From the IMG/VR virus record IMGVR_UViG_2671180454_000011: a stretch of DNA of 10,277 nucleotides; one strand, written 5' to 3'. The DNA comes from a virus (taxonomy: Duplodnaviria; Heunggongvirae; Uroviricota; Caudoviricetes). Below the pieces are notes generated by a model. The model did no database searches. It worked only from the letters and a program-made list of their open reading frames with translations, and was not told the origin of the DNA. Positions 1 to 10,277 of this stretch are shown here, piece by piece (position 1 is the first letter of the stretch; every line of letters starts with the position of its first letter). The translations under genes were made by a program, and so were the position numbers.

Positions 1-2
1 TT

Positions 3-320
3 CATCGTGCAGTTAAATACCTTCCACCAGCAGGCCATAACGGGCTTACTATTCGTTCACCGTTTCCTAGTGCAGTCGTTGTTTTTAAAAAAGAACCACG
101 TAAGCACGAAATTACACAGACGGTTTGCTGTGGTGACACGCTATTACCGTTAACCATCATTAACAGAGGAGGCTTGAGAGGAAGACCCACCATTTACCCA
201 CCTGAGACGCTCGACAGCTTCATAAAACTATACAGGCAAGGAAAACCCATTAAGTGCATTGCAGATGCTCTCAGAATGCCTCTGAGCACGTCATACAGGA
301 TTGCTCAAAGGTTGAGCTAA
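3..320 (+). CDS. 3' part of a gene entering from upstream of the window; product ends in a resolvase/invertase-type HTH DNA-binding motif
   Basis: Manual translation of + frame 3 gives 105 sense codons from the window edge to TAA 318-320 in AT-rich DNA (…TVCCGDTLLPLTIINRGGLRGRPTIYPPETLDSFIKLYRQGKPIKCIADALRMPLSTSYRIAQRLS*). Absent from the ORF track because it has no in-window start codon. The GRP-(linker)-…G.P…IA..L….STSYRI pattern matches the C-terminal DNA-binding domain of serine recombinases (Hin/Gin/Tn3 resolvase) from memory; residues before GRP do not obviously match a resolvase catalytic domain. Confidence 0.5.
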   Translation, partial: HRAVKYLPPAGHNGLTIRSPFPSAVVVFKKEPRKHEITQTVCCGDTLLPLTIINRGGLRGRPTIYPPETLDSFIKLYRQGKPIKCIADALRMPLSTSYRIAQRLS

Positions 321-411
321 AATTCTCATAAATATGGTCATTTACAAGATAGGTGATTCAGATATTAAGAAGTATCCCTGTGAACAATAAATGACCAATC
401 AGTAATTATTC

Positions 412-442
412 TGTGAAATAATTGTTGCAATTTATAATCACA
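412..442. promoter_or_regulatory. 31-bp imperfect palindrome TGTGAAATAATTGTTGCAATTTATAATCACA (perfect core AATTG-TTG-CAATT); candidate operator or recombination site; contains a perfect TATAAT hexamer at 433-438
   Basis: Read directly: TGTGA … TCACA outer arms and a perfect 13-bp central palindrome, inside the 380-bp non-coding gap between the HTH gene and the rep-like gene. Confidence 0.3.
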
Positions 443-519
443 TCTGTTATAGTTTTTATATGGGGTGATAAAAGAACTCAGAACATTAAGAGGTTACAAC
501 GTTGGGAGGCGTCAGGGTA

Positions 520-547
520 TTGACAGATTTTCACGGCCTCTTATTCA
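520..547 (+). promoter_or_regulatory. Putative sigma70-type promoter TTGACA-N16-TATTCA oriented toward the rep-like gene
   Basis: Perfect -35 hexamer TTGACA at 520-525, -10-like TATTCA at 542-547; about 150 bp upstream of ATG 703. The -10 is imperfect. Confidence 0.25.
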
Positions 548-702
548 ATCAAGGCTTTTCCTTTTGCTGTTAATACTCGCGTAATCGCTCAGGCTTCTGA
601 GTTCCTTTATCAGTCCATCTTCTAATTAATTCACTCCCTCTGGGGTTGGTCACTATACGTGGTCAGCCCTTTCTTTGTTTTATTTTTAAAAAGGAAAATA
701 TA

Positions 703-1656
703 ATGGAAAAATTCCACATGTTTGATGACCGTATTTATCAGATGACTAATGGCGTTAAAGCTGCCGACCGTATTATTTACACTGTCATGTTGAATGAACA
801 AAAGTTTTATCACGATAAGGGGCAATATTATACCCCTTCATATGCTCATCTTGGTCAGTATGCTGGAATCACAAGAACATCCGTGATTGCATGTATGAAA
901 CAACTTGAGGCACATGGTTTAATCAAGAAAACTAACGTTGCAAGCAATCAGTGTGTTATTAAAGTTTATTCACTTGATGAAGTACCGGAGGTTTTAACAG
1001 AGCTTACAGCTAAGGAAGCCAGAAAGGCAAAGCTGGAGTCTAAAGTTACTCAGTCAGTCAAGAAAGATGACCCACTGAGTCAAAATTCTTTACCCACTGA
1101 GTCAAAATTTTTTACTCAGTCAGTCAAAATCTTTGACACGTATAATAACAGTAATAACAAGAAAGAACTTATTAATAACAATAAAGAAGATGACTTTGAA
1201 GAAGAATATTTTAAGAAGGGAGCTTCGCTCTGTGATTCACATGAATGTGATTCTCTTGGTATTGAAGAGGCTATTAAAGAGACTGTTAAAACATCTGACT
1301 TAGATGACCTTGATAGTGAAGCTGCTAAAGAGGTCGTTAAAAAGGAAGATAAAATCTCTGATGTGATTGCTAGTAGTGACCATAAAAACACACAGTGCCC
1401 CGCCACTGATGATGAATTACCGGATGTTGACCTTGATGATGAAGAAGACCCTGAAAAGGAATTGAAACGTGAACAGCGTAAAGCAGAAATTAAAGAAAGA
1501 TTCAGAAATGCGAAGCTAAAGAACAAGGTTAGTGACCTCGATGACTTTGATGATAGTGACGATGATTTTACTTTTACACCAAAAAAGAAAACTCACACCG
1601 AGCCAAAGAAAGAAAAAGTTAAAGTCAGACGTGTTTATGGTGGAGGAATGTTTTAA
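703..1656 (+). CDS. Replication-initiator-like protein: N-terminal winged-helix/HTH-like domain (…YAHLGQYAGITRTSVIACMKQLEAHGLIKK…) followed by ~200 aa of acidic low-complexity sequence; iterons lie inside the gene
   Basis: ORF-track ORF 646..1656 (TTG start); ATG at 703 preferred because AAAGGAAAA lies 6-14 nt upstream. The N-terminal ~100 aa resemble wHTH DNA-binding domains of phage/plasmid initiators (lambda O-like or replisome-organizer-like) from memory; the rest is D/E/K-rich (DLDDLDSE, PDVDLDDEED, SDLDDFDDSDDDF). Functional call is inference from domain look and the internal iterons. Confidence 0.75.
   Translation: MEKFHMFDDRIYQMTNGVKAADRIIYTVMLNEQKFYHDKGQYYTPSYAHLGQYAGITRTSVIACMKQLEAHGLIKKTNVASNQCVIKVYSLDEVPEVLTELTAKEARKAKLESKVTQSVKKDDPLSQNSLPTESKFFTQSVKIFDTYNNSNNKKELINNNKEDDFEEEYFKKGASLCDSHECDSLGIEEAIKETVKTSDLDDLDSEAAKEVVKKEDKISDVIASSDHKNTQCPATDDELPDVDLDDEEDPEKELKREQRKAEIKERFRNAKLKNKVSDLDDFDDSDDDFTFTPKKKTHTEPKKEKVKVRRVYGGGMF
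1046..1133. repeat. Four tandem 22-bp iterons (A-B-B-A): TTACTCAGTCAGTCAAGAAAGA / TGACCCACTGAGTCAAAATTCT / TTACCCACTGAGTCAAAATTTT / TTACTCAGTCAGTCAAAATCTT
   Basis: Hexamer AGTCAA occurs at 1056, 1078, 1100, 1122 (exact 22-bp spacing, counted by hand). Units 1 and 4 are near-identical, as are units 2 and 3. Located within the rep-like ORF. Confidence 0.75.
1134..1200. other. AT-rich tract directly 3' of the iterons with three copies of TAATAACA (1143, 1152, 1173); candidate DNA-unwinding element of an intragenic origin
   Basis: Read directly; position relative to the iterons mirrors the ori-lambda layout (iterons followed by AT-rich region inside gene O). Confidence 0.4.
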
Positions 1657-1952
1657 TGAAAACTTATAATGGCGAGAGAAAATACCGTGACTATTTACTC
1701 AGACGTTACAGCATTTCTCGTGAAGGTTACTTGATGAAAGATACTCACGGGGAAGTTTACCGGATTCGACCGAAGAAAGAAGGGAGGGATTATTATTTCG
1801 TCGATGATGTGACAGATTTAAAGATTGACGCTTTGAAGTTTGCGGTGCTGTATCATTACGATTTATGGGATTCAGTCCACCAGCTACGATTAAAAGACGG
1901 TGACCCCGGTAATCTGAGGGCCACCAATATTATCAAGGGAAAGTGCCGGTAA
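1656..1952 (+). CDS. Hypothetical 98-aa protein, translationally coupled to the rep-like gene (TAATG overlap); faint resemblance to AP2/NUMOD4-HNH-like small phage proteins
   Basis: ORF track; ATG 1656 overlaps the rep TAA stop; GGTGGAGGA SD about 10 nt upstream. The motifs YSISREGYL and KDGDPGNLRATN loosely recall NUMOD4 and HNH segments, but the catalytic His placement does not fit, so this is not a confident call. Confidence 0.65.
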   Translation: MKTYNGERKYRDYLLRRYSISREGYLMKDTHGEVYRIRPKKEGRDYYFVDDVTDLKIDALKFAVLYHYDLWDSVHQLRLKDGDPGNLRATNIIKGKCR

Positions 1953-1961
1953 GGCCACCAG

Positions 1962-2138
1962 CTATTTATTTACTGAAATCTCTATCTCAACACGAAGAAG
2001 TTTAAGTCGAATTGTAAGCTTTGTCTTTTTTGTAATGACTCGATTCATAACGCAAAACACCAATAGCACAATAAATACCGCAAAGCCCAACGAGCTAAAA
2101 CGATGAGATTCAATAATTGCTGTGAAAAAATCATGCAT
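1962..2138 (-). CDS. Small single-pass membrane protein (58 aa: MHDFFTAIIESHRFSSLGFAVFIVLLVFCVMNRVITKKTKLTIRLKLLRVEIEISVNK)
   Basis: Minus-strand ORF 1962..2168 in the track (GTG start); the first ATG (plus 2136-2138) has AAGGA 7 nt upstream and a TTGTCA-N17-TACTAT promoter further upstream. One hydrophobic helix followed by a basic stretch. Lies convergent to the rep operon, with only 9 bp between the two stop codons. Confidence 0.45.
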   Translation of the reverse strand: MHDFFTAIIESHRFSSLGFAVFIVLLVFCVMNRVITKKTKLTIRLKLLRVEIEISVNK

Positions 2139-2188
2139 TAATTTTCCTTTTGTGAAAGGAAACAGCACCTGTATCAGCCCCTACAACC

Positions 2189-2217
2189 ATAGTATCATGT
2201 AAATGAGGTACTGACAA
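2189..2217 (-). promoter_or_regulatory. Putative promoter for the minus-strand small membrane-protein gene (TTGTCA-N17-TACTAT on the minus strand)
   Basis: Reverse complement of plus 2212-2217 (TGACAA) gives the -35 TTGTCA; reverse complement of plus 2189-2194 (ATAGTA) gives the -10 TACTAT; spacer is 17 nt. Confidence 0.3.
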
Positions 2218-2239
2218 TATGTTAAATAGATGTTAAGAT
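2211..2239 (+). promoter_or_regulatory. Putative promoter for the small-gene operon starting at 2276 (CTGACA-N17-TAAGAT); its -35 overlaps the -35 of the divergent minus-strand promoter
   Basis: Read directly: -35 at 2211-2216, -10 at 2234-2239, 17-nt spacer; ATG 2276 is ~30 nt downstream of the predicted start site. Confidence 0.3.
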
Positions 2240-2275
2240 TGTAGTATGAGTAAGAGATTTAAGGAGATTTTTACA

Positions 2276-2566
2276 ATGACTCACACAGTTACGCGCCTTT
2301 TGCCAGAGGCATTTGAACGACTGGCAGCAATCAAAGCCAAATATCCCGATATGAAGCACACAGCGCTTGTTGGGGAGATTTTAAAAGAGTCGGTAAACCT
2401 TAGCCCTTTCGATAACGTTAAGGGCGTCGCAGAGGGTTCTAAGGCCATCAGAATCACAACGGGCCAACTGGAACTACTCAAAGCACAGTCCGCAGTAGCA
2501 GGTTGCTCAATGATTCAGGTGTTAAGCGCTAAGGTCCATCAACTGGCGGATAGATTGGAGGTTTAA
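2276..2566 (+). CDS. Small DNA-binding protein with two consecutive ribbon-helix-helix-like segments (96 aa)
   Basis: ORF track 2246..2566; ATG 2276 preferred (AAGGAG SD 9 nt upstream). Segment 1 TVTRLLPEAFERLAAIKAKYPDMKHTALVGEILKESV and segment 2 IRITTGQLELLKAQSAVAGCSMIQVLSAKVHQLADRL each fit the RHH pattern of a beta-strand, helix, G-x-S/T-type turn and helix (Arc/CopG/MetJ-like), judged from memory. Confidence 0.7.
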   Translation: MTHTVTRLLPEAFERLAAIKAKYPDMKHTALVGEILKESVNLSPFDNVKGVAEGSKAIRITTGQLELLKAQSAVAGCSMIQVLSAKVHQLADRLEV

Positions 2567-2787
2567 TGTGTTATAGGTTCCAATATTCCACACTTGGCCG
2601 CCACCTAATCAGACAGAATTTAGCAGATGCTGAATTTGAAGATGTGACCCTCAAAGCAAACAAACGATTAAAACCCTCTCAAATCCACCAGCTTAAACAC
2701 GAATTAAAGCCACTGGTAATACTCGACTATAACGACCCTGAACAGCTTGAGCAGGGAATTAAGCTTATTTCTGAATGGGGTGCTTGA
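2566..2787 (+). CDS. Hypothetical 73-aa protein, translationally coupled (TAATG) to the RHH-like gene
   Basis: ORF track; ATG 2566 overlaps the upstream TAA stop; GGAGG SD at 2556-2560. Confidence 0.65.
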   Translation: MCYRFQYSTLGRHLIRQNLADAEFEDVTLKANKRLKPSQIHQLKHELKPLVILDYNDPEQLEQGIKLISEWGA

Positions 2788-3002
2788 TGAAAACTATCAC
2801 AGTACAACTTCAGACTAATAAAGCATTTCGTTATTTTGAAAACTTGCTTGAGTTATACGAAGGATGGGGAAGTATCCACGGCAAAGATGATATCTATCTT
2901 CACTTGTCAGCCCCTAACTATTCTCTGAAGACTCCGGTTAAGCAAAGCTGGTTAAAAGACTACGGTCACCAGATGGGGCTATTAGTCTCAGACTTGAGCT
3001 AA
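2787..3002 (+). CDS. Hypothetical 71-aa protein, start overlapping the upstream stop (TGATG); alternative start at ATG 2775
   Basis: ORF track 2775..3002; ATG 2787 overlaps the upstream TGA by 1 nt and has a G-rich SD-like stretch upstream; ATG 2775 lacks one. Confidence 0.6.
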   Translation: MKTITVQLQTNKAFRYFENLLELYEGWGSIHGKDDIYLHLSAPNYSLKTPVKQSWLKDYGHQMGLLVSDLS

Positions 3003-3044
3003 AAACAGCAAAACATATCTCTCAGGCTTTACCAGACGCACCAG

Positions 3045-3119
3045 AAACGTTTTTAAGCCCCTAATCAGGGTAACTTAGGGAATCGCCTTAAGTGGTCTAA
3101 AAAAGGGGTTAAAACGTCT
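3045..3119. promoter_or_regulatory. Nested inverted repeats in the 146-bp intergenic gap: AAACGTTTTTAAGCCCC (3045-3061) vs GGGGTTAAAACGT (3105-3117), enclosing hairpin CCCTAA-N10-TTAGGG (3058-3080)
   Basis: Read directly; AAACGTTT (3045-3052) is itself a perfect 8-bp palindrome. No classical GC stem plus U-run terminator is evident. Confidence 0.3.
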
Positions 3120-3148
3120 TAGAATGCGATACAGGAAGGATTTTAAAA

Positions 3149-3454
3149 ATGAATTACCCAATGCAAATTATGGTTGACCAAGAAACCATGAATTGGTTGA
3201 TTGACCTGAACAGGTCGGGCTTTAATATCTATTTCATGCATTGTTTTGAAGCGTCAACGTATATTGACAAGCATATAATCAACGAAATTAAACTTGGTGA
3301 CTATGTTCACAAGCTGGAAGTAACAGACCCATACAATAAGCGCTTTATCATTGAAGAGTGCAATCGACTTGATTTAAGCCCTGAGCAATTATTGAAGCTG
3401 AATGTATTCTTGACCTATCAGAATGAATTAAACCCTTACAGCGAGGTGATGTAA
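3149..3454 (+). CDS. Hypothetical 101-aa protein
   Basis: ORF track; ATG 3149 preceded by AGGAAGG. Confidence 0.7.
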   Translation: MNYPMQIMVDQETMNWLIDLNRSGFNIYFMHCFEASTYIDKHIINEIKLGDYVHKLEVTDPYNKRFIIEECNRLDLSPEQLLKLNVFLTYQNELNPYSEVM

Positions 3455-3531
3455 TGACACTCGTTATTCTCTGGATGACTTTAGGGTTATTTGTTGGTTG
3501 CTGGGTAGGTAATACGGTAAATAAGAATTGA
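3454..3531 (+). CDS. 25-aa hydrophobic micro-ORF (MTLVILWMTLGLFVGCWVGNTVNKN), translationally coupled (TAATG) to the 101-aa gene
   Basis: Not in the ORF track (too short). ATG 3454-3456 overlaps the upstream TAA stop; GAGGTG SD 5-10 nt upstream; product is one predicted TM helix. Manual translation to TGA 3529-3531. Confidence 0.4.
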   Translation: MTLVILWMTLGLFVGCWVGNTVNKN

Positions 3532-3650
3532 TGTTACCAATCTGTTAAAAAGCTGTTGACAAATAACCTTAAGCATGAGATGATGGTAATAGGGAAGAGC
3601 AACTCTTCCTGAATTAAACTATTAATCATTCTACATCAATGATAGTTATT

Positions 3651-3704
3651 CTGAAAGGTGCAATGCTTTTCGCTACATGACCTTTCAGGTTAGTCTGAGA
3701 GGTC
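3651..3704 (+). promoter_or_regulatory. Mutually exclusive stem-loops: CTGAAAGGT (3651-3659) or CTGAGAGGTC (3695-3704) can each pair with GACCTTTCAG (3679-3688); candidate RNA switch/attenuator-like element
   Basis: Read directly: a 9-bp perfect stem with 20-nt loop versus a 10-bp stem (1 mismatch) with 6-nt loop, sharing the central arm. Lies in a 398-bp non-coding region downstream of a TTGACA hexamer (3556-3561) and of hairpin GGAAGAG-caa-CTCTTCC (3593-3609). Confidence 0.35.
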
Positions 3705-3733
3705 ATCTCGAAAAGTACTCTTGTTCATTCGTT

Positions 3734-3755
3734 TGAATCCTTTTTGAATCCTTTA
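3734..3755. repeat. Tandem direct repeat TGAATCCTTTT / TGAATCCTTTA
   Basis: Read directly: two adjacent 11-bp units, 10 of 11 identical. Confidence 0.5.
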
Positions 3756-3784
3756 GATGTTTTAATTTCTTCACCTTATGAATG

Positions 3785-3810
3785 GCCCTTTATAAGAAAT
3801 TATCTAGGGC
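3785..3810. promoter_or_regulatory. Imperfect palindrome GCCCT-TTATAAGAAATTATCT-AGGGC about 120 bp upstream of the 236-aa gene; candidate operator
   Basis: Read directly: 5-bp perfect outer arms with partial inner symmetry (TATAA/TTAT). Confidence 0.25.
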
Positions 3811-3929
3811 TATTCAGCTTTTAAAAAGCATACTTGGCAAACCGCCTTTTAAGTCTCTTCTAAGTTTAGATAGGCTGTCAGGTGTGCTTTTTAAAAACTG
3901 AAACACTTCCGCTTAGAAGAGGAAAAGCA

Positions 3930-4640
3930 ATGACAAATGATATTTACATTAATGGCAAAGTGATTGATAGCTTCAGTGACTGGTCGCCACAGACTGAACA
4001 TCCAGCTATCACTATTCAGCGTAAAGAGCATGACAAGCGTATTGAGCTTGAGCAATCGCTAAAGATGTCACCAAAAACAACCATCTTTGTGTCTCCTGAG
4101 CCTCAAGAGATGCCTGATATTTGCAAGAGTGAAGCATTACTTGAGCTTGAAAAGAAATATTACCAACTGCTGAAAGAACAGCGCCTTAGATTAGATGACG
4201 CTTACAGCAAAGTTACCTTGATGCAATCAGCTATTGAGCCGTCAGAATTTGAGATTCAGGATGAATTGTCACAGAAACCATTTGTCTATTACCAATACGA
4301 AGATAATGATGGTTTTGGTACTTTTCAAGAAAACGTCGCAGCCGTGATTAGTAGTCTTCCTGCTGGACATCGAATTGTGAAGATGGTTAAGGCATCAAGA
4401 GGTGCTGGTCAGTTTATTTACATGACTAATAAGAGCGATGAAGAACTCGCTGAAATTGCTAGACAGAACATCTTGGCATCACGTAACAAGCAACTTGATA
4501 ATGTTAAGTTGTATCTCTCAAGAGAGCTTCAGGCTATGAAAGAGCTTGTGAAAGAATATGAAGATGCTAAGAAGATTGCTATGCAGGCTGATATTGAGCA
4601 GCTTACGAAGATTTCTAGCAAATATGCAAAGGCTATTTAA
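3930..4640 (+). CDS. Hypothetical 236-aa protein with a helical, charged (coiled-coil-like) C-terminal third
   Basis: ORF track 3882..4640 (GTG start); ATG 3930 preferred (AGAAGAGGA SD 7 nt upstream). No family recognised. Confidence 0.75.
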   Translation: MTNDIYINGKVIDSFSDWSPQTEHPAITIQRKEHDKRIELEQSLKMSPKTTIFVSPEPQEMPDICKSEALLELEKKYYQLLKEQRLRLDDAYSKVTLMQSAIEPSEFEIQDELSQKPFVYYQYEDNDGFGTFQENVAAVISSLPAGHRIVKMVKASRGAGQFIYMTNKSDEELAEIARQNILASRNKQLDNVKLYLSRELQAMKELVKEYEDAKKIAMQADIEQLTKISSKYAKAI

Positions 4641-4664
4641 TTAATAATTAAAAGGTGGTGGTGA

Positions 4665-4871
4665 ATGATTGATTTAACAGAACGCTATGAGCTTATTAAA
4701 GCAATTAGTGAACGATTGAAAGAACAACCCAACAAACCAAAACGAATCAAATCATTCACCTCCTCTAAGCAAAAGAATAGAATCAGGAAAATAGCTAAGT
4801 GGTGTCTTGATAAATTACCAAGTGATTGTCAGATTGTTGGTGAAGATGGTAATTATTATCTGGTTAGGTAA
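4665..4871 (+). CDS. Hypothetical 68-aa basic protein
   Basis: ORF track; AGGTGG SD 8 nt upstream of ATG 4665. Confidence 0.6.
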   Translation: MIDLTERYELIKAISERLKEQPNKPKRIKSFTSSKQKNRIRKIAKWCLDKLPSDCQIVGEDGNYYLVR

Positions 4872-4969
4872 CAAGATTGGTTGGGTGAAAATCTACGGGA
4901 GAGATTATCGAGTGATATCGGTAGTCTTTCCCTTTTTCGTATATGAACACTTAAAGAGGTGAAACATGA

Positions 4970-7150
4970 ATGAGCAAATTCACAGTTGATAGTTTTATCG
5001 TTGAACTTAGTTTCAGTGAAAACGTTATTAAGGGCTTGCAAAGAGTTGAAAAGGCAGCTTTGCAGTCAGCACAAAGAATTGAACGCAATTTGAATAGAGC
5101 GTTTAAGGTCGATACCAAGCAACTTGACAGCAATCTGACAAGTTCTTTAGGGCAGCTTGAAAGGAAGTTTAATAAGACCTTTGACAAGATTGAGCAGAGA
5201 GCAAGAAGCACAAAAGCATTTCAGTTTGCCACCAGATTTAATGACACTGTTAATCCTCCAAAACAATCAAGGCAACCACGAATTAGCGGAAACAGAGCAA
5301 TCACAGCAGCGCATAGCGTGAATATGTCTAAGCTTGGTGATATTAATCCGCTGATGGCTAAAATGTTTAAAGCACAGTATTACAGCTTAAGCGGTAAGGC
5401 TGGTAATATTGGAAGTGAAAAGTTTAACGCTGAACTTGCAAAATTAAATCAATCTCTTCGTGAAACGTTGAATAAACTCAGGTCACAGACAAAGACCGCC
5501 AGCATTAACAATACAAGCGACGCATTTAATAATCTTGCAAGCAATGCGATTAAATTATCTGGTGCATTTTACTCTGTGATGGGTGCTCTTAACGCTTACA
5601 AGGCCATTATGAATGCAGGTCTTAAACGAGATTCCGCACAGAGAGCCGCTAAGTTTGTACTTGGTGATAAAGCATCTGAAGCTGAGGTATTTATTCGAAA
5701 TTTAGCAGACAAGACAGGTCTTAATATCTCTGAAGGGCTATCAAGCTACGCTAAGTTTGCAGCAGGTGCTCAGGGTTCTATGTCACAGGAACAGACACAG
5801 GAGCTATTTGGTAATGCAACGGCTATGAGTCGCTTAATGGGGCTTTCTAACGATGAGCTAAACGGCATTTTGAGAGCATTTGAGCAGATGGCGAGCAAGG
5901 GCAAGATTCAGGCTGAGGAATTACGTGGGCAGTTAGGTGACCGTATGGCTGGTGCATTTAAGCTATTCGCTGAAGCATTGGGTATGACTGCTACAGAGCT
6001 TGATGCAGCCATGAAAAACGGGAAGGTACTTTCCGCTGATACTCTCCCTAAAGTCGCTAAACAGATGGGCTTGATGATTGATAAAGCGGGTGGCTGGGCT
6101 GAAGTCACTAAGAGCACTCAGACAGCTTTAGGTAAGTTAGCAAACAATTGGGATGATACGATGGTGAAAATCTTCTCAGGTTCACAGGATGAGCTAAACG
6201 GCTTCTTATCCAGCCTGAGTAACCTGCTTAGTGAAATGGGGATGAGTTCTTCTATCGCTGGTGATGCTATCGGTGGACTTATCGACATGCTTAAAGCTGG
6301 TGTAGATGATATTCGCGTATTCAATAACACCATTGAAGGCTGGATTTTACAGACTAAGAAGTTCTATTACAGCCTTGATGACACTAAACGAAAACTACTT
6401 GATGAAGTCGGTGATGGTTTTATCAACTTCGTCAAAGGTCTTGCTATAGCGTTATCTGCAAAGACGCTATTCAGTGCTACTACAGGGGTTATGAACCTGA
6501 CAAGAGCAATCACAACGTTAGGTACAAGAGCTAATCAGGTGGCTGGTCAGGTAGCTACTGGTAAAGGTGGTGGAAAACTGAAAGGTGTAGCTGGTGGTGT
6601 AGGTAGTGCTCTTGCAATTGGTTATGCTGATGACGGTTATGAAACAGCGTTAGCATTAGCTTCAATGATTCCACAAATCAGAGGCGTCACTCTTGGTTTA
6701 TATGCATTGAAGAAAGCACTGGATTTTATGAATCAGGAAGTAGTCAAAAACGCTAATATGCATCCGTCTGGGGTAGGTGTGGGTAGTGACTTTAATCCCG
6801 TGTATTCTGGTGACCCTAATAAACCGAATATGATTAACGAAGGATGGAGTAGAATTTTTAGTTCAATGGGTGAATTGTTTAACAATGCCACAATGAATAT
6901 TGCAAGATTCAATCATCCAGAGTTAAACAACATTAAGCAAGATTCAGCATTAACGAGTGCAGATATTCAGGGTCTGAGGGATGAAATTAGTGCTTTGAGT
7001 AAGCGTATTCAGGAGCCAGTGAAAGTTTCACTTGGTGGTCAAGTTGTCGTTCGACCAGATGAACCATCTTTCTTTACTTTCAATCAATCAGCTAATGACC
7101 AGTTCACGCAGGATATGCTCTTAAGTTCAAGCTATCCAGAGGAAGAATGA
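4970..7150 (+). CDS. Tail tape-measure-domain protein (726 aa)
   Basis: ORF track; AAGAGGTGA SD upstream of ATG 4970. Contains the conserved tape-measure core …FVLGDKASEAEVFIRNLADKTGL…ASKGKIQAEELRGQLGDRMAGAFKLFAEALGMTATELDAAMKNGKVLSADTLPKVAKQMG… recognised from memory, a coiled-coil-rich N-terminus and a Gly-rich hydrophobic middle (GKGGGKLKGVAGGVGSALAIGYADDGYE). Role as a true tail ruler is uncertain because no other tail or head genes are in the window. Confidence 0.8.
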   Translation: MSKFTVDSFIVELSFSENVIKGLQRVEKAALQSAQRIERNLNRAFKVDTKQLDSNLTSSLGQLERKFNKTFDKIEQRARSTKAFQFATRFNDTVNPPKQSRQPRISGNRAITAAHSVNMSKLGDINPLMAKMFKAQYYSLSGKAGNIGSEKFNAELAKLNQSLRETLNKLRSQTKTASINNTSDAFNNLASNAIKLSGAFYSVMGALNAYKAIMNAGLKRDSAQRAAKFVLGDKASEAEVFIRNLADKTGLNISEGLSSYAKFAAGAQGSMSQEQTQELFGNATAMSRLMGLSNDELNGILRAFEQMASKGKIQAEELRGQLGDRMAGAFKLFAEALGMTATELDAAMKNGKVLSADTLPKVAKQMGLMIDKAGGWAEVTKSTQTALGKLANNWDDTMVKIFSGSQDELNGFLSSLSNLLSEMGMSSSIAGDAIGGLIDMLKAGVDDIRVFNNTIEGWILQTKKFYYSLDDTKRKLLDEVGDGFINFVKGLAIALSAKTLFSATTGVMNLTRAITTLGTRANQVAGQVATGKGGGKLKGVAGGVGSALAIGYADDGYETALALASMIPQIRGVTLGLYALKKALDFMNQEVVKNANMHPSGVGVGSDFNPVYSGDPNKPNMINEGWSRIFSSMGELFNNATMNIARFNHPELNNIKQDSALTSADIQGLRDEISALSKRIQEPVKVSLGGQVVVRPDEPSFFTFNQSANDQFTQDMLLSSSYPEEE

Positions 7151-7157
7151 TTTAACG

Positions 7158-7998
<841 letters not shown>

Positions 7999-8020
7999 TG
8001 TGCAAAATGGCATCTGAATC

Positions 8021-8125
8021 GATCGCAGTTTGGCATTCGAATCGATCATGATTTGGCATCCATCTCCGATCACAGTTTGGCATCACAATCGATCACGATT
8101 TGGCATACTTCCGATCATTGATTGG
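8021..8125. repeat. Five direct repeats of GATC-N4-TTTGGCAT (last copy degenerate) with 22-24 bp spacing at the IS left end; candidate multiple transposase-binding sites
   Basis: GATC at 8021, 8044, 8068, 8091, 8113; TTTGGCAT at 8029, 8052, 8076, 8099; a sixth partial copy AAATGGCAT at 8005. Counted by hand. Multiple subterminal repeats are a known hallmark of IS21-family ends. Confidence 0.7.
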
Positions 8126-8201
8126 AATTCGCCAGTCACTCCGGGAATTAACTCTTTTCACCACAGTCTCCATTGCCGTGTTTAAACCAGTGGAGACGTC
8201 A

Positions 8202-9767
8202 ATGTCCAAAAAGAGAAAATCCAGGAGCACTATGGAAACTTGTTTTAAGATCCTTCAGCTCAAGTTCGATAAGAAGCTGACTAACCGTTGTATCGGACTG
8301 ACGTTACACATCAGCGCCTCAACCGTTTTTGAGGTTCTTGCCCGCTTCAAAGCCTCTTCTCTGTCATGGCCATTACCTGCGGATATATCCCATGACACGC
8401 TGGAGAAACTCATTTTCCCGCCCAAAGACACCTCTGCGTCAGAGCTTGTTATGCCTGACATGCTGTACTTCGATACGGAAATGAGAAAACCTGGCGTGAC
8501 GCGCCAACTGTTGTGGATGGAATACAAGGCACAGGCGGGTGACAAAGCGATGGGATACTCACACTTCTGCCGTTGCTACCGGAAGTGGAAAAAAACGCGA
8601 CGCCTCTCCATGCGACAGGAGCATCGTGCTGGCGAAAAGCTCTTTATCGACTTCTGTGGTCCTACGGTCCCTGTTATTAATCCGGACACCGGAGAGATAC
8701 GCCGCGTGGCAATCTTCGTGGCTGTAATGGGGGCGTCCAACTATACCTATGTTGAAGCGTGCGAAGGTCAGGACATGATGTCATGGTTAAATGCCCACAG
8801 CCGTTGCCTGACCTTCCTGGGCGGCGTACCGAAGCTGCTCATCCCCGATAACCTCAGAAGCGCAGTGAAAAAAGCCGATCGCTATGAGCCTGTCATCAAC
8901 GACAGTTATCAGGCGCTGGCTGAGCACTATGGCACGGTTATTATCCCGGCCCGCCCGCGCAAACCTAAAGATAAACCAAAAGCAGAAAACGGCGTCCTCA
9001 TCGTCGAGCGATGGCTTCTTGCCCGCATCCGTAATGAAACCTTCCACACGCTCAGGGCGCTGAATGCACGCCTTCGGGAGTTGCTGACGGACATGAATAA
9101 CCGACCAATGAAGGGATACGGTAATCAAACCCGCGCAGAACGCTTCCGCATGCTGGATGCACCAGCACTCTCTCCGCTGCCTCTGGAGCCTTATGAATAC
9201 ACGGAATACAAAGCCGTGAAGGTTGGCCCTGACTACCACGTTGAATATGCCCGTCACTGGTACTCCGTTCCACACGAACTGGTCGGTCAGCGTCTGTCAC
9301 TGAAGGTGGGGCAGTCGGTGGTACAGCTCTGGCACAAGGGGCAGTGTGTGGCGCAACATCCGCGCAGCACACATGAATATAAACACACAACCAATCCGCT
9401 TCACATGCCAGAACGCCACCGGCGGCATGGGACATGGACACCGGAACGCCTTATCGAGCAGGGAAACCGTACAGGTCCGTCCACAGGCCGGGTGGTTGAA
9501 TCCATGCTGAAAGCCAAACCCCATCCGGAGCTGGCTTACCGTGCAGTCCTGGGTCTGCTGGCACTTCAGAAAAAATACGGCCCGGAACGGCTGGAAAAGG
9601 CCTGTTACGTTGCCCTGCACTATAACGCCCCGGACAGACGCTTTATCGACAATCTGCTGCGTCATCATCGGGATAACGTTGAGCTTCCGTTATCCCGCCA
9701 GGGCGAACAACATCCGGCATATGCTTCAGAGCATGAAAACCTGCGTGGTCCTGGCTACTACCACTGA
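8202..9767 (+). CDS. istA: IS21-family transposase IstA (N-terminal HTH, DDE catalytic core)
   Basis: ORF track 8100..9767 (TTG start); ATG 8202 preferred (GGAGA SD 5 nt upstream). N-terminal HTH-like …LTNRCIGLTLHISASTVFEVL…, then a DDE-type core ending in the …PRKPKDKPKAENGV… block typical of IS21-family IstA, from memory. Confidence 0.85.
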   Translation: MSKKRKSRSTMETCFKILQLKFDKKLTNRCIGLTLHISASTVFEVLARFKASSLSWPLPADISHDTLEKLIFPPKDTSASELVMPDMLYFDTEMRKPGVTRQLLWMEYKAQAGDKAMGYSHFCRCYRKWKKTRRLSMRQEHRAGEKLFIDFCGPTVPVINPDTGEIRRVAIFVAVMGASNYTYVEACEGQDMMSWLNAHSRCLTFLGGVPKLLIPDNLRSAVKKADRYEPVINDSYQALAEHYGTVIIPARPRKPKDKPKAENGVLIVERWLLARIRNETFHTLRALNARLRELLTDMNNRPMKGYGNQTRAERFRMLDAPALSPLPLEPYEYTEYKAVKVGPDYHVEYARHWYSVPHELVGQRLSLKVGQSVVQLWHKGQCVAQHPRSTHEYKHTTNPLHMPERHRRHGTWTPERLIEQGNRTGPSTGRVVESMLKAKPHPELAYRAVLGLLALQKKYGPERLEKACYVALHYNAPDRRFIDNLLRHHRDNVELPLSRQGEQHPAYASEHENLRGPGYYH

Positions 9768-9783
9768 CAGAAGGAACAACCGT

Positions 9784-10277
9784 ATGAGTGATAATCTGTT
9801 AAACAAACTGACCCAACTGAAACTCCCGGCGATGGCCGGGAGCCTGATACGGCAACGGGAAACGCCTCAGACTTACGACGAACTGTCGTTCGAGGAAAGG
9901 CTGACACTGCTGGTTGATGACGAGCTTCTGAGCAGAGAAAACAGTCGTGTGGCACGGTTGAGAAAAAATGCCTGCCTGAAATATCAGGCAACACCGGAAG
10001 GGCTGCGTTATCCGGCCTCAAGAGGTCTGCGGGCTGAACAGATGAGGGAACTGCTGAACGGCCACTACATAATCCACAGGAAAAACCTACTGATAACCGG
10101 TCCGACAGGATGCGGTAAGAGCTGGATAGCCAATGCGCTGGGCGAACAGGCATGTCGACAGAAATACAGCGTCCGGTACTGTAGAACCGGGCGATTACTG
10201 GAACAGTTGGCTCAGGGACGTGTTGATGGCAGTTGGCTGAAATATCTGAAACAGTTGCAAAAAATACAGGTTCTAAT
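9784..10277 (+). CDS. istB: IS21-family helper ATPase IstB, 5' part (continues beyond window)
   Basis: Manual translation from ATG 9784 (AAGGA SD 9 nt upstream): MSDNLLNKLTQLKLPAMAGS…NLLITGPTGCGKSWIANALGEQA… with a Walker A motif (GPTGCGKS); open to the window end. Not in the ORF track because no stop is reached. Confidence 0.85.
   Translation, partial: MSDNLLNKLTQLKLPAMAGSLIRQRETPQTYDELSFEERLTLLVDDELLSRENSRVARLRKNACLKYQATPEGLRYPASRGLRAEQMRELLNGHYIIHRKNLLITGPTGCGKSWIANALGEQACRQKYSVRYCRTGRLLEQLAQGRVDGSWLKYLKQLQKIQVL

Follow-up and report, generated by a model that had tools for sequence, protein, structure and literature searches.

Three coupled genes

The 10,277 bp stretch of DNA analysed here (IMG/VR record IMGVR_UViG_2671180454_000011, called "the window" below) contains a cassette of three small genes, genes 1, 2 and 3 (Table 1), that belongs to a mosaic island of the Shigella sonnei and Escherichia coli chromosomes. 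Gene 1 encodes a protein with two predicted ribbon-helix-helix (RHH) units, and genes 2 and 3 encode island-specific proteins. Each gene is preceded by a Shine-Dalgarno-like sequence, the weakest of which is the GGGG in front of gene 3, and successive genes overlap by one base, gene 1 with gene 2 in the sequence TAATG and gene 2 with gene 3 in TGATG; these coordinates and overlaps agree with a first-pass annotation made from the window alone. The one-base overlap of genes 1 and 2 is present in all four of the downstream variants found in other islands (see below), and allele B, the second of the two split forms of genes 2 and 3, couples these two genes through the sequence ATGA. Longer mechanical open reading frames (ORFs) that start at 2246 for gene 1 and at 2775 for gene 3 show no conservation in relatives.

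All three ORFs are real genes under purifying selection. The ratio of nonsynonymous to synonymous substitution rates (dN/dS) of gene 1 is 0.15–0.33 in six of seven comparisons, and the seventh, at 0.63, is a near-identical pair with only 9 differences. Genes 2 and 3 were compared with the diverged allele B, which comes from islands L003 and L007; the amino acid identities are 53% for gene 2 (dN 0.40) and 47–50% for gene 3, synonymous sites are saturated in both, and dN for the two genes ranges from 0.36 to 0.42. Annotation pipelines mostly leave gene 2 uncalled.

Gene 1, a predicted tandem RHH protein

An AlphaFold2 model of the gene 1 protein, built with 25 homologues (predicted local distance difference test, pLDDT, 61.5), contains two β-α-α units in a single chain: a strand at residues 3–7 and helices at 10–22 and 28–35, a linker, and then a strand at 57–61 and helices at 62–75 and 79–93. 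The best structural match in a fold search with this model is the relaxosome protein TraY, and lower in the list are many single RHH regulators and antitoxins, each aligned over about 42 residues; the model chain superposes as a whole on RHH dimers or pseudo-dimers. The turn between helices A and B of unit 2 is a canonical G-x-S/T (G76-C77-S/T78, of which G76 and C77 are invariant), and in unit 1 a non-canonical Y23-P24-x-x-x-H28 loop stands in place of the G-x-S/T/N turn. The proposal of the first-pass annotation that two RHH units are present in these 96 amino acids is thus supported by the predicted structure and the fold search, with moderate model confidence. On the strength of this model the gene 1 protein is a predicted tandem RHH of the single-chain type, and it would be a new sequence family in a known, fairly rare structural kind whose natural members are TraY, DndE and AvtR (PMC10853773, PMC5569661).

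Homologues of gene 1 are confined to Escherichia, Shigella and Citrobacter. Among the 25 used here, which are 71–96% identical overall, both predicted β-strands (H3-T4-V5-T6-R7 and K56-A57-x-R59-I60-T61) are invariant, as would be expected if the modelled ribbon reads an invariant operator. The only non-RHH segment of the protein is the internal linker of residues 36–56, and residues 42–57 (window positions ~2399–2446) are almost invariant (L42, F45, V51, E53, G54, S55, K56 and A57). This near-invariance suggests that the linker has a function too and, instead of passively tethering the two units, offers a conserved surface for interactions. A tblastn search with gene 1 gave a weak match (E 0.01) in a Shewanella Mu-like phage; it falls within the C-terminal part of a virion protein of 824 amino acids and was dismissed as spurious.

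Genes 2 and 3 and their variants in other islands

The families of genes 2 and 3 are likewise restricted to Escherichia, Shigella and Citrobacter. In most islands the slot after gene 1 is filled by a protein of 128–141 amino acids, and alignments show gene 2 to be homologous to the N-terminal ~85 residues of these proteins. Their C-terminal ~45 residues gave repeated sub-threshold matches to HTH_28, HTH_7, HTH_23 and Sigma70_r4 in several independent members, which points to a helix-turn-helix (HTH) at the end of the longer proteins; the relationship of gene 2 to the N-terminal domain of such HTH-bearing proteins points to a regulator. A profile search of 1.84 billion representative proteins found only 13 relatives of gene 2, of which 12 are island proteins or their fragments; the other (P0113, E 5.7e-05) aligns only with the HTH part of the profile. 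The gene 3 protein has 20 homologues, all of them standalone proteins of 54–75 amino acids, and its model is confident (pLDDT 86), a small β-α-β-β-α domain for which a fold search found no detectable structural relative and no toxin match. Gene 2 has no match in Pfam, PHROG, NCBIfam, PADLOC or PDB, and neither gene has homologues among 50,697 phage genomes or relatives among PDB sequences. The first-pass annotation had recognised neither downstream protein, and these searches of known families and folds leave that unchanged.

The four variants of the slot were counted in 5,426 complete E. coli genomes. Split allele A, the form in the window, is present in 20 of these and split allele B in 36; a fused 141-amino acid form is present in 57 and a fused 128-amino acid form in 126. 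Gene 3 therefore occurs in about 23% of islands (56 of the 239 genomes with any variant) and the fused forms make up the remaining ~77%. The short gene 2 and gene 3 are always found together, with no chimeras among the 56 genomes, and gene 3, which never occurs without the short gene 2, and the HTH form are mutually exclusive. Since gene 1 is linked to a gene 2 domain in every island examined, the constant element is gene 1 plus the gene 2 domain, and gene 3 is one of two alternative "second halves". Of the three-gene linkage proposed in the first-pass annotation, the links between gene 1 and the gene 2 domain and between gene 2 and gene 3 hold, and the extension to gene 3 applies to the split islands only.

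Gene 1 alleles, which form groups of ~94% and ~71% identity, combine freely with all four downstream variants. In island L005, for example, a 71% identical gene 1 stands beside 99% identical genes 2 and 3, and in L006 gene 1 is frameshifted and genes 2 and 3 are intact. The only plausible catalytic histidine of gene 3, H31, is an aspartate in allele B.

Promoters and TGTTA repeats

A promoter scan places a sigma-70-like promoter, P1, upstream of the gene 1-2-3 unit. Its -35 and -10 hexamers are CTGACA (TTGACA in most islands) and TAAGAT, with a spacing of 17 and a TG present. The ~110 bp 5' of gene 1 are nearly invariant between islands, and the adjacent gene on the other strand is found as three alleles. 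The spacer and extended -10 element of P1 contain the direct repeat TGTTA-N6-TGTTA (site 1), and a second copy (site 2) ends 8 nt upstream of the -35 hexamer of another promoter, P2. P2 is near consensus, TTGACA-17-GATGAT here and with CATAAT as its -10 in most islands, again with a TG, and it heads the genes for a 237-amino acid protein, a 68-amino acid protein, a tape-measure protein (TMP) and a Dit-like protein.

The exact sequence TGTTA-N6-TGTTA occurs twice in the 10.3 kb window, where 0.04 copies are expected, and none of 200 shuffled sequences reached two. Both copies are on the + strand, each at a promoter-like site, and both are kept in every island locus that includes the regions; just one further copy is present in 27 kb of flanking chromosome. 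Across 14 islands the half-sites of site 2 are invariant and its 6-nt spacer varies, a pattern that reads as the signature of a bipartite protein-binding site. Gene 1, as a core island protein with invariant predicted DNA-reading residues, is a candidate binder of these repeats. The non-palindromic subsite, a direct repeat with 11-bp phasing, would fit the modelled protein, an asymmetric monomeric pseudo-dimer with two different β-strands.

The divergent gene upstream of P1 encodes a putative single-pass membrane protein and has a promoter-like site of its own that overlaps P1. It is conserved at the protein level in three diverged alleles (58–61 amino acids) that have the motif ESHRF in common, and Pfam contains no match to it. 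Controlled by the same switch, it may serve in lysis or exclusion or as a toxic peptide.

Table 1. Positions of the cassette, its putative control sites and neighbouring features in the window
Feature	Position	Strand	Remarks
Repeats TTACTCAGTCAGTCAA	1046-1127		16-nt repeat, three copies inside the Rep-like gene; candidate iterons
Divergent membrane-protein gene	1962-2138	-	58 aa, single-pass; promoter-like site 2217 to 2189 overlaps P1
Degenerate half-site	2198-2202		TGTAA, third copy, 22 bp upstream of site 1
P1	2211-2239	+	Sigma-70-like promoter of gene 1-2-3 unit; -35 at 2211-2216, -10 at 2234-2239
Site 1	2220-2235	+	Direct repeat TGTTA-N6-TGTTA, 11-bp phasing; in P1 spacer and extended -10
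Gene 1	2276-2566	+	96 aa, predicted tandem RHH protein; ATG 2276, TAA 2564-2566; Shine-Dalgarno AAGGAG 2261-2266
Gene 1 RHH unit 1	~residues 3-35		Predicted
Gene 1 linker	residues 36-56		Conserved
Gene 1 RHH unit 2	~residues 57-93		Predicted
Gene 2	2566-2787	+	73 aa, island-specific; ATG 2566, TGA 2785-2787; Shine-Dalgarno GGAGG 2555-2559
Gene 3	2787-3002	+	71 aa, island-specific; ATG 2787, stop 3000-3002
Gene 4	3149-3454		101 aa, acidic
ORF MTLVILWMTLGLFVGCWVGNTVNKN	3455-3531		25 aa, hydrophobic
Site 2	3532-3547	+	Second TGTTA-N6-TGTTA; ends 8 nt upstream of P2 -35
P2	3556-3584	+	Near-consensus promoter; 10/12 matches in scan; nearly invariant in 14 islands
Hairpin	3592-3610		GGAAGAG-CAA-CTCTTCC
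Hairpin	3677-3708
Inverted repeat	3813-3902		27-nt arms, 85% complementary, 36-nt loop
237-aa gene	from 3927
ISSso4	7993-10277		IS21-family element

The island

A protein identical to that of gene 1 is encoded by the Shigella sonnei chromosome in thousands of samples, and the cassette lies there in an island of ~10–11 kb between ymdF and wrbA. In the window the island takes up positions 1–8000, and in locus L001 it lies at 13500–24800. Related E. coli islands occupy at least three chromosomal sites, at wrbA, yciI/tonB and yecN. Their common gene order is small serine recombinase, Dam methylase, Rep-like protein, 98-amino acid protein, divergent small membrane protein, gene 1, the variable slot, gene 4 (~101–109 amino acids), 237-amino acid protein, 68-amino acid protein, TMP, Dit-like protein and large serine recombinase. 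The islands are highly mosaic, and each module has alternative alleles that reassort. The Rep-like protein matches PHROG replication initiators (E 2e-10), and the repeats TTACTCAGTCAGTCAA inside its gene, two of them exact and one 81% identical, are candidate origin iterons. The only virion genes are those for TMP and the Dit-like protein (PF21821), and there are no terminase or capsid genes. These two genes are syntenic homologues of the Felixounavirus genes garuso_118/119; the Dit-like protein is 72% identical in amino acid sequence to its Felixounavirus counterpart, and patches of the DNA are 88–93% identical.

In the S. sonnei copy the Dit-like gene is cut by the insertion sequence ISSso4, which matches copies carried by the S. 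sonnei virulence plasmid at 99.9% identity, and the large serine recombinase is truncated, so this copy of the island is probably immobile. At least 239 of the 5,426 complete E. coli genomes carry a variant of the slot, as does essentially the whole S. sonnei lineage. A blastn count of genomes with gene 1 gave 127, below the summed count of the downstream variants, and we take it as an undercount because every locus inspected has gene 1. One locus was found in a scan of GTDB species representatives and four in IMG/VR, all four in proviral regions of isolate genomes; there is no DNA match to the cassette in phages, nor to the cassette part of the window in plasmids. A literature search found no description of the island, which does not prove that none exists. 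It is apparently an undescribed satellite-like or tail-interference element that integrates by a serine recombinase.

Possible roles of the cassette

The reading that we favour, if tentatively and with a little less than even confidence, is that the cassette is the regulatory module of this mobile, satellite-like chromosomal island. Gene 1 would act as a monomeric pseudo-dimer of two fused RHH units that contacts DNA through an asymmetric two-stranded β-ribbon, and its likely targets would be the direct repeats TGTTA-N6-TGTTA. At site 1 in P1 we infer autorepression, and probably also control of the overlapping divergent membrane-protein promoter; at site 2 the protein would address P2, the strong promoter of the block that contains the TMP and Dit-like tail genes. 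The start/stop overlaps would cause genes 2 and 3 to be translated in fixed proportion with gene 1. Genes 2 and 3 would form an exchangeable partner module in which the gene 2 domain is constant and the output part is either a separate small α/β protein (gene 3) or, in most islands, a fused C-terminal HTH. These proteins would be linked physically or functionally to the switch and would most likely modulate or relay it, for instance upon infection by a helper phage.

Several observations weigh against the regulatory module. Confidence in the gene 1 model is only moderate, and falls below pLDDT 50 in the linker. Gene 1 has no Pfam, NCBIfam or PHROG match at E values up to 1 and is unrecognised by PADLOC, and a profile search against PDB sequences yielded no RHH protein, so that it is a tandem RHH protein as a structural member only and a new family in sequence; hhalign detected no sequence similarity between its N-terminal and C-terminal halves, and the duplication thus shows up in the predicted structure alone. 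The gene 3 protein, with an isoelectric point (pI) of 6.8, is close to neutral and has no sign of a DNA-binding or regulatory domain. The TGTTA repeats could be bound by another core island protein (Rep, gene 4 or the 98-amino acid protein), and site 1 in part falls on the extended -10 element of P1 itself.

The closest precedent in logic, by analogy, would be AvtR of Acidianus filamentous virus 6 (PDB 4hv0), a single-chain tandem RHH protein whose monomer binds DNA, where it acts as a repressor of the avtR gene itself and as a regulator of the divergent neighbour (PMC5569661). Like the gene 1 protein as modelled, AvtR has about 100 amino acids and two linked RHH units and is encoded by a viral or mobile genome; gene 1 likewise sits at two overlapping divergent promoter-like sites with repeated subsites. 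It differs in being an archaeal virus protein with no detectable sequence relationship to gene 1, and its sites are imperfect inverted repeats, whereas the candidate gene 1 sites are direct repeats 11 bp apart.

Phage satellites offer a second comparison. The island resembles them in being small, in carrying an integrase and a replication module of its own and in lacking capsid genes, and its cassette, like the regulators of satellites (Stl and AlpA of SaPI/PICI, and PLE), is placed between replication genes and phage-directed genes; it shares with PLE integration by a large serine recombinase and an affinity to a virulent myovirus. The island proteins have no homology to Stl, AlpA or PLE proteins, and the pointers to a helper phage are circumstantial, namely the homology of the TMP and Dit-like genes to Felixounavirus genes. 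We know of no described satellite family that carries TMP plus Dit-like tail genes, and a literature search agrees. A bolder form of the regulatory reading, which we consider rather unlikely, would make the cassette a switch by which an enterobacterial satellite of an undescribed class (or a defence island that interferes with tail assembly), parasitic on virulent Felixounavirus phages, senses its helper. Here the tandem RHH protein would hold P2 and its own promoter through the TGTTA repeats, the exchangeable gene 2 module, with gene 3 or a fused HTH as output, would set the phage signal, and gene 3 would be a new small signalling fold.

Among the alternatives, it is possible, if doubtful, that genes 2 and 3 are effectors or cargo that act on the host or on the helper phage, by interference, anti-defence or takeover, and that they occupy a variable slot and are simply co-transcribed with the RHH regulator. 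The slot does have four variants that reassort with every other module of the mosaic island, both families are lineage-restricted ORFans without known domains, the fold of gene 3 is predicted with confidence and is without known relatives, and the nearness of the tail genes to those of virulent Felixounavirus phages indicates that the island has phage-directed functions. All of the slot variants nevertheless share the gene 2 domain and most add an HTH, which argues for a DNA-associated regulatory role, and their tight translational coupling to gene 1 is kept throughout; the lack of PADLOC and PHROG matches and of phage homologues also speaks against effectors.

We think it quite unlikely that gene 1 is less a transcription factor than an architectural factor like TraY, bending DNA so that the island can initiate replication, excise or be packaged, and that genes 2 and 3 are its co-factors. 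In the fold search gene 1 was closest to TraY, a relaxosome accessory protein of the F plasmid (PDB 9f0x chain E). TraY too is an enterobacterial mobile-element protein, with two RHH units per chain as predicted for gene 1; it is 12% identical to gene 1 and has a C-terminal extension. TraY and DndE are monomeric tandem RHH DNA binders, and TraY binds oriT and its own promoter (PMC10853773). The cassette is directly downstream of a Rep gene with iteron-like repeats, and an island without terminase or capsid genes needs a route of mobilisation or packaging. Both copies of the motif are nonetheless at promoters and not at the iterons or island ends, and TraY works with a relaxase at oriT, whereas the island has no relaxase or oriT context. 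Gene 1, moreover, is 71–98% identical across islands whose large serine recombinases share only 29–35% identity, and for this reason a role as recombination directionality factor is also unlikely. DndE (PDB 7x4e, 5wtu), the tandem RHH protein of DNA phosphorothioation, partners an ABC-ATPase in dnd operons, and no dnd genes are present here; it also continues into C-terminal helices for which gene 1 has no counterpart.

A type II toxin-antitoxin (or tripartite toxin-antitoxin-chaperone-like) module, with gene 1 as RHH antitoxin and gene 2 and/or gene 3 as toxin, is highly improbable, although RHH antitoxins (ParD, MazE, CopG/TacA-type and VapB) also head short coupled operons with probable autoregulation and the cassette has this layout, pointed out in the first-pass annotation, on a mobile element: those antitoxins are single dimerising RHH units with a toxin-binding tail, whereas gene 1 is a predicted fused pseudo-dimer whose model ends three residues past unit 2 (residue 93 of 96) and leaves no room for one, no toxin family in Pfam, NCBIfam or PADLOC and no toxin fold for gene 3 was matched, gene 2 is a domain of HTH proteins, the alleles of gene 1 pair with all four variants (as in L005) rather than co-vary with them, L006 keeps genes 2 and 3 after the loss of an intact gene 1, and the H31 position of gene 3 is not conserved.

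With the cassette, the few known single-chain tandem RHH proteins (TraY, DndE and AvtR) are joined by a new sequence family, and two small proteins of restricted lineage are added, of which one has a fold that matches no other. The cassette also gives access to the circuit that controls a widespread island, itself more striking than the cassette. Felixounavirus phages, which are virulent, have uses in phage therapy and in biocontrol. Should the RHH protein indeed gate the tail genes, two short promoter fragments and a 96-amino acid protein would offer a directly testable way into how an element of this type senses a lytic phage and exploits or blocks it.

Gene 4 and the region downstream of it

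Gene 4 encodes an acidic protein (pI 4.7) in which two strand-plus-helix stretches that recall RHH units, and an "SPEQ" helix cap, can be seen by eye; as a candidate second tandem RHH protein it found no support when its profile was compared with that of gene 1 and searched against PDB sequences. It occurs as two alleles, ~30% identical, that reassort independently of genes 2 and 3. Directly after its stop codon is the short hydrophobic ORF MTLVILWMTLGLFVGCWVGNTVNKN, whose own stop overlaps site 2 by one base and for which conservation at the protein level is apparent in several islands.

P2 is followed by a leader of ~340 nt with two hairpins, the first of which shows compensatory changes between islands. 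Rfam has no match to a known RNA in the window, and the hairpins may be part of a regulatory leader or small RNA. Just upstream of the start of the 237-amino acid gene is a longer inverted repeat, which several islands have kept; termination or attenuation of transcription, packaging and recombination are all possible functions for it.

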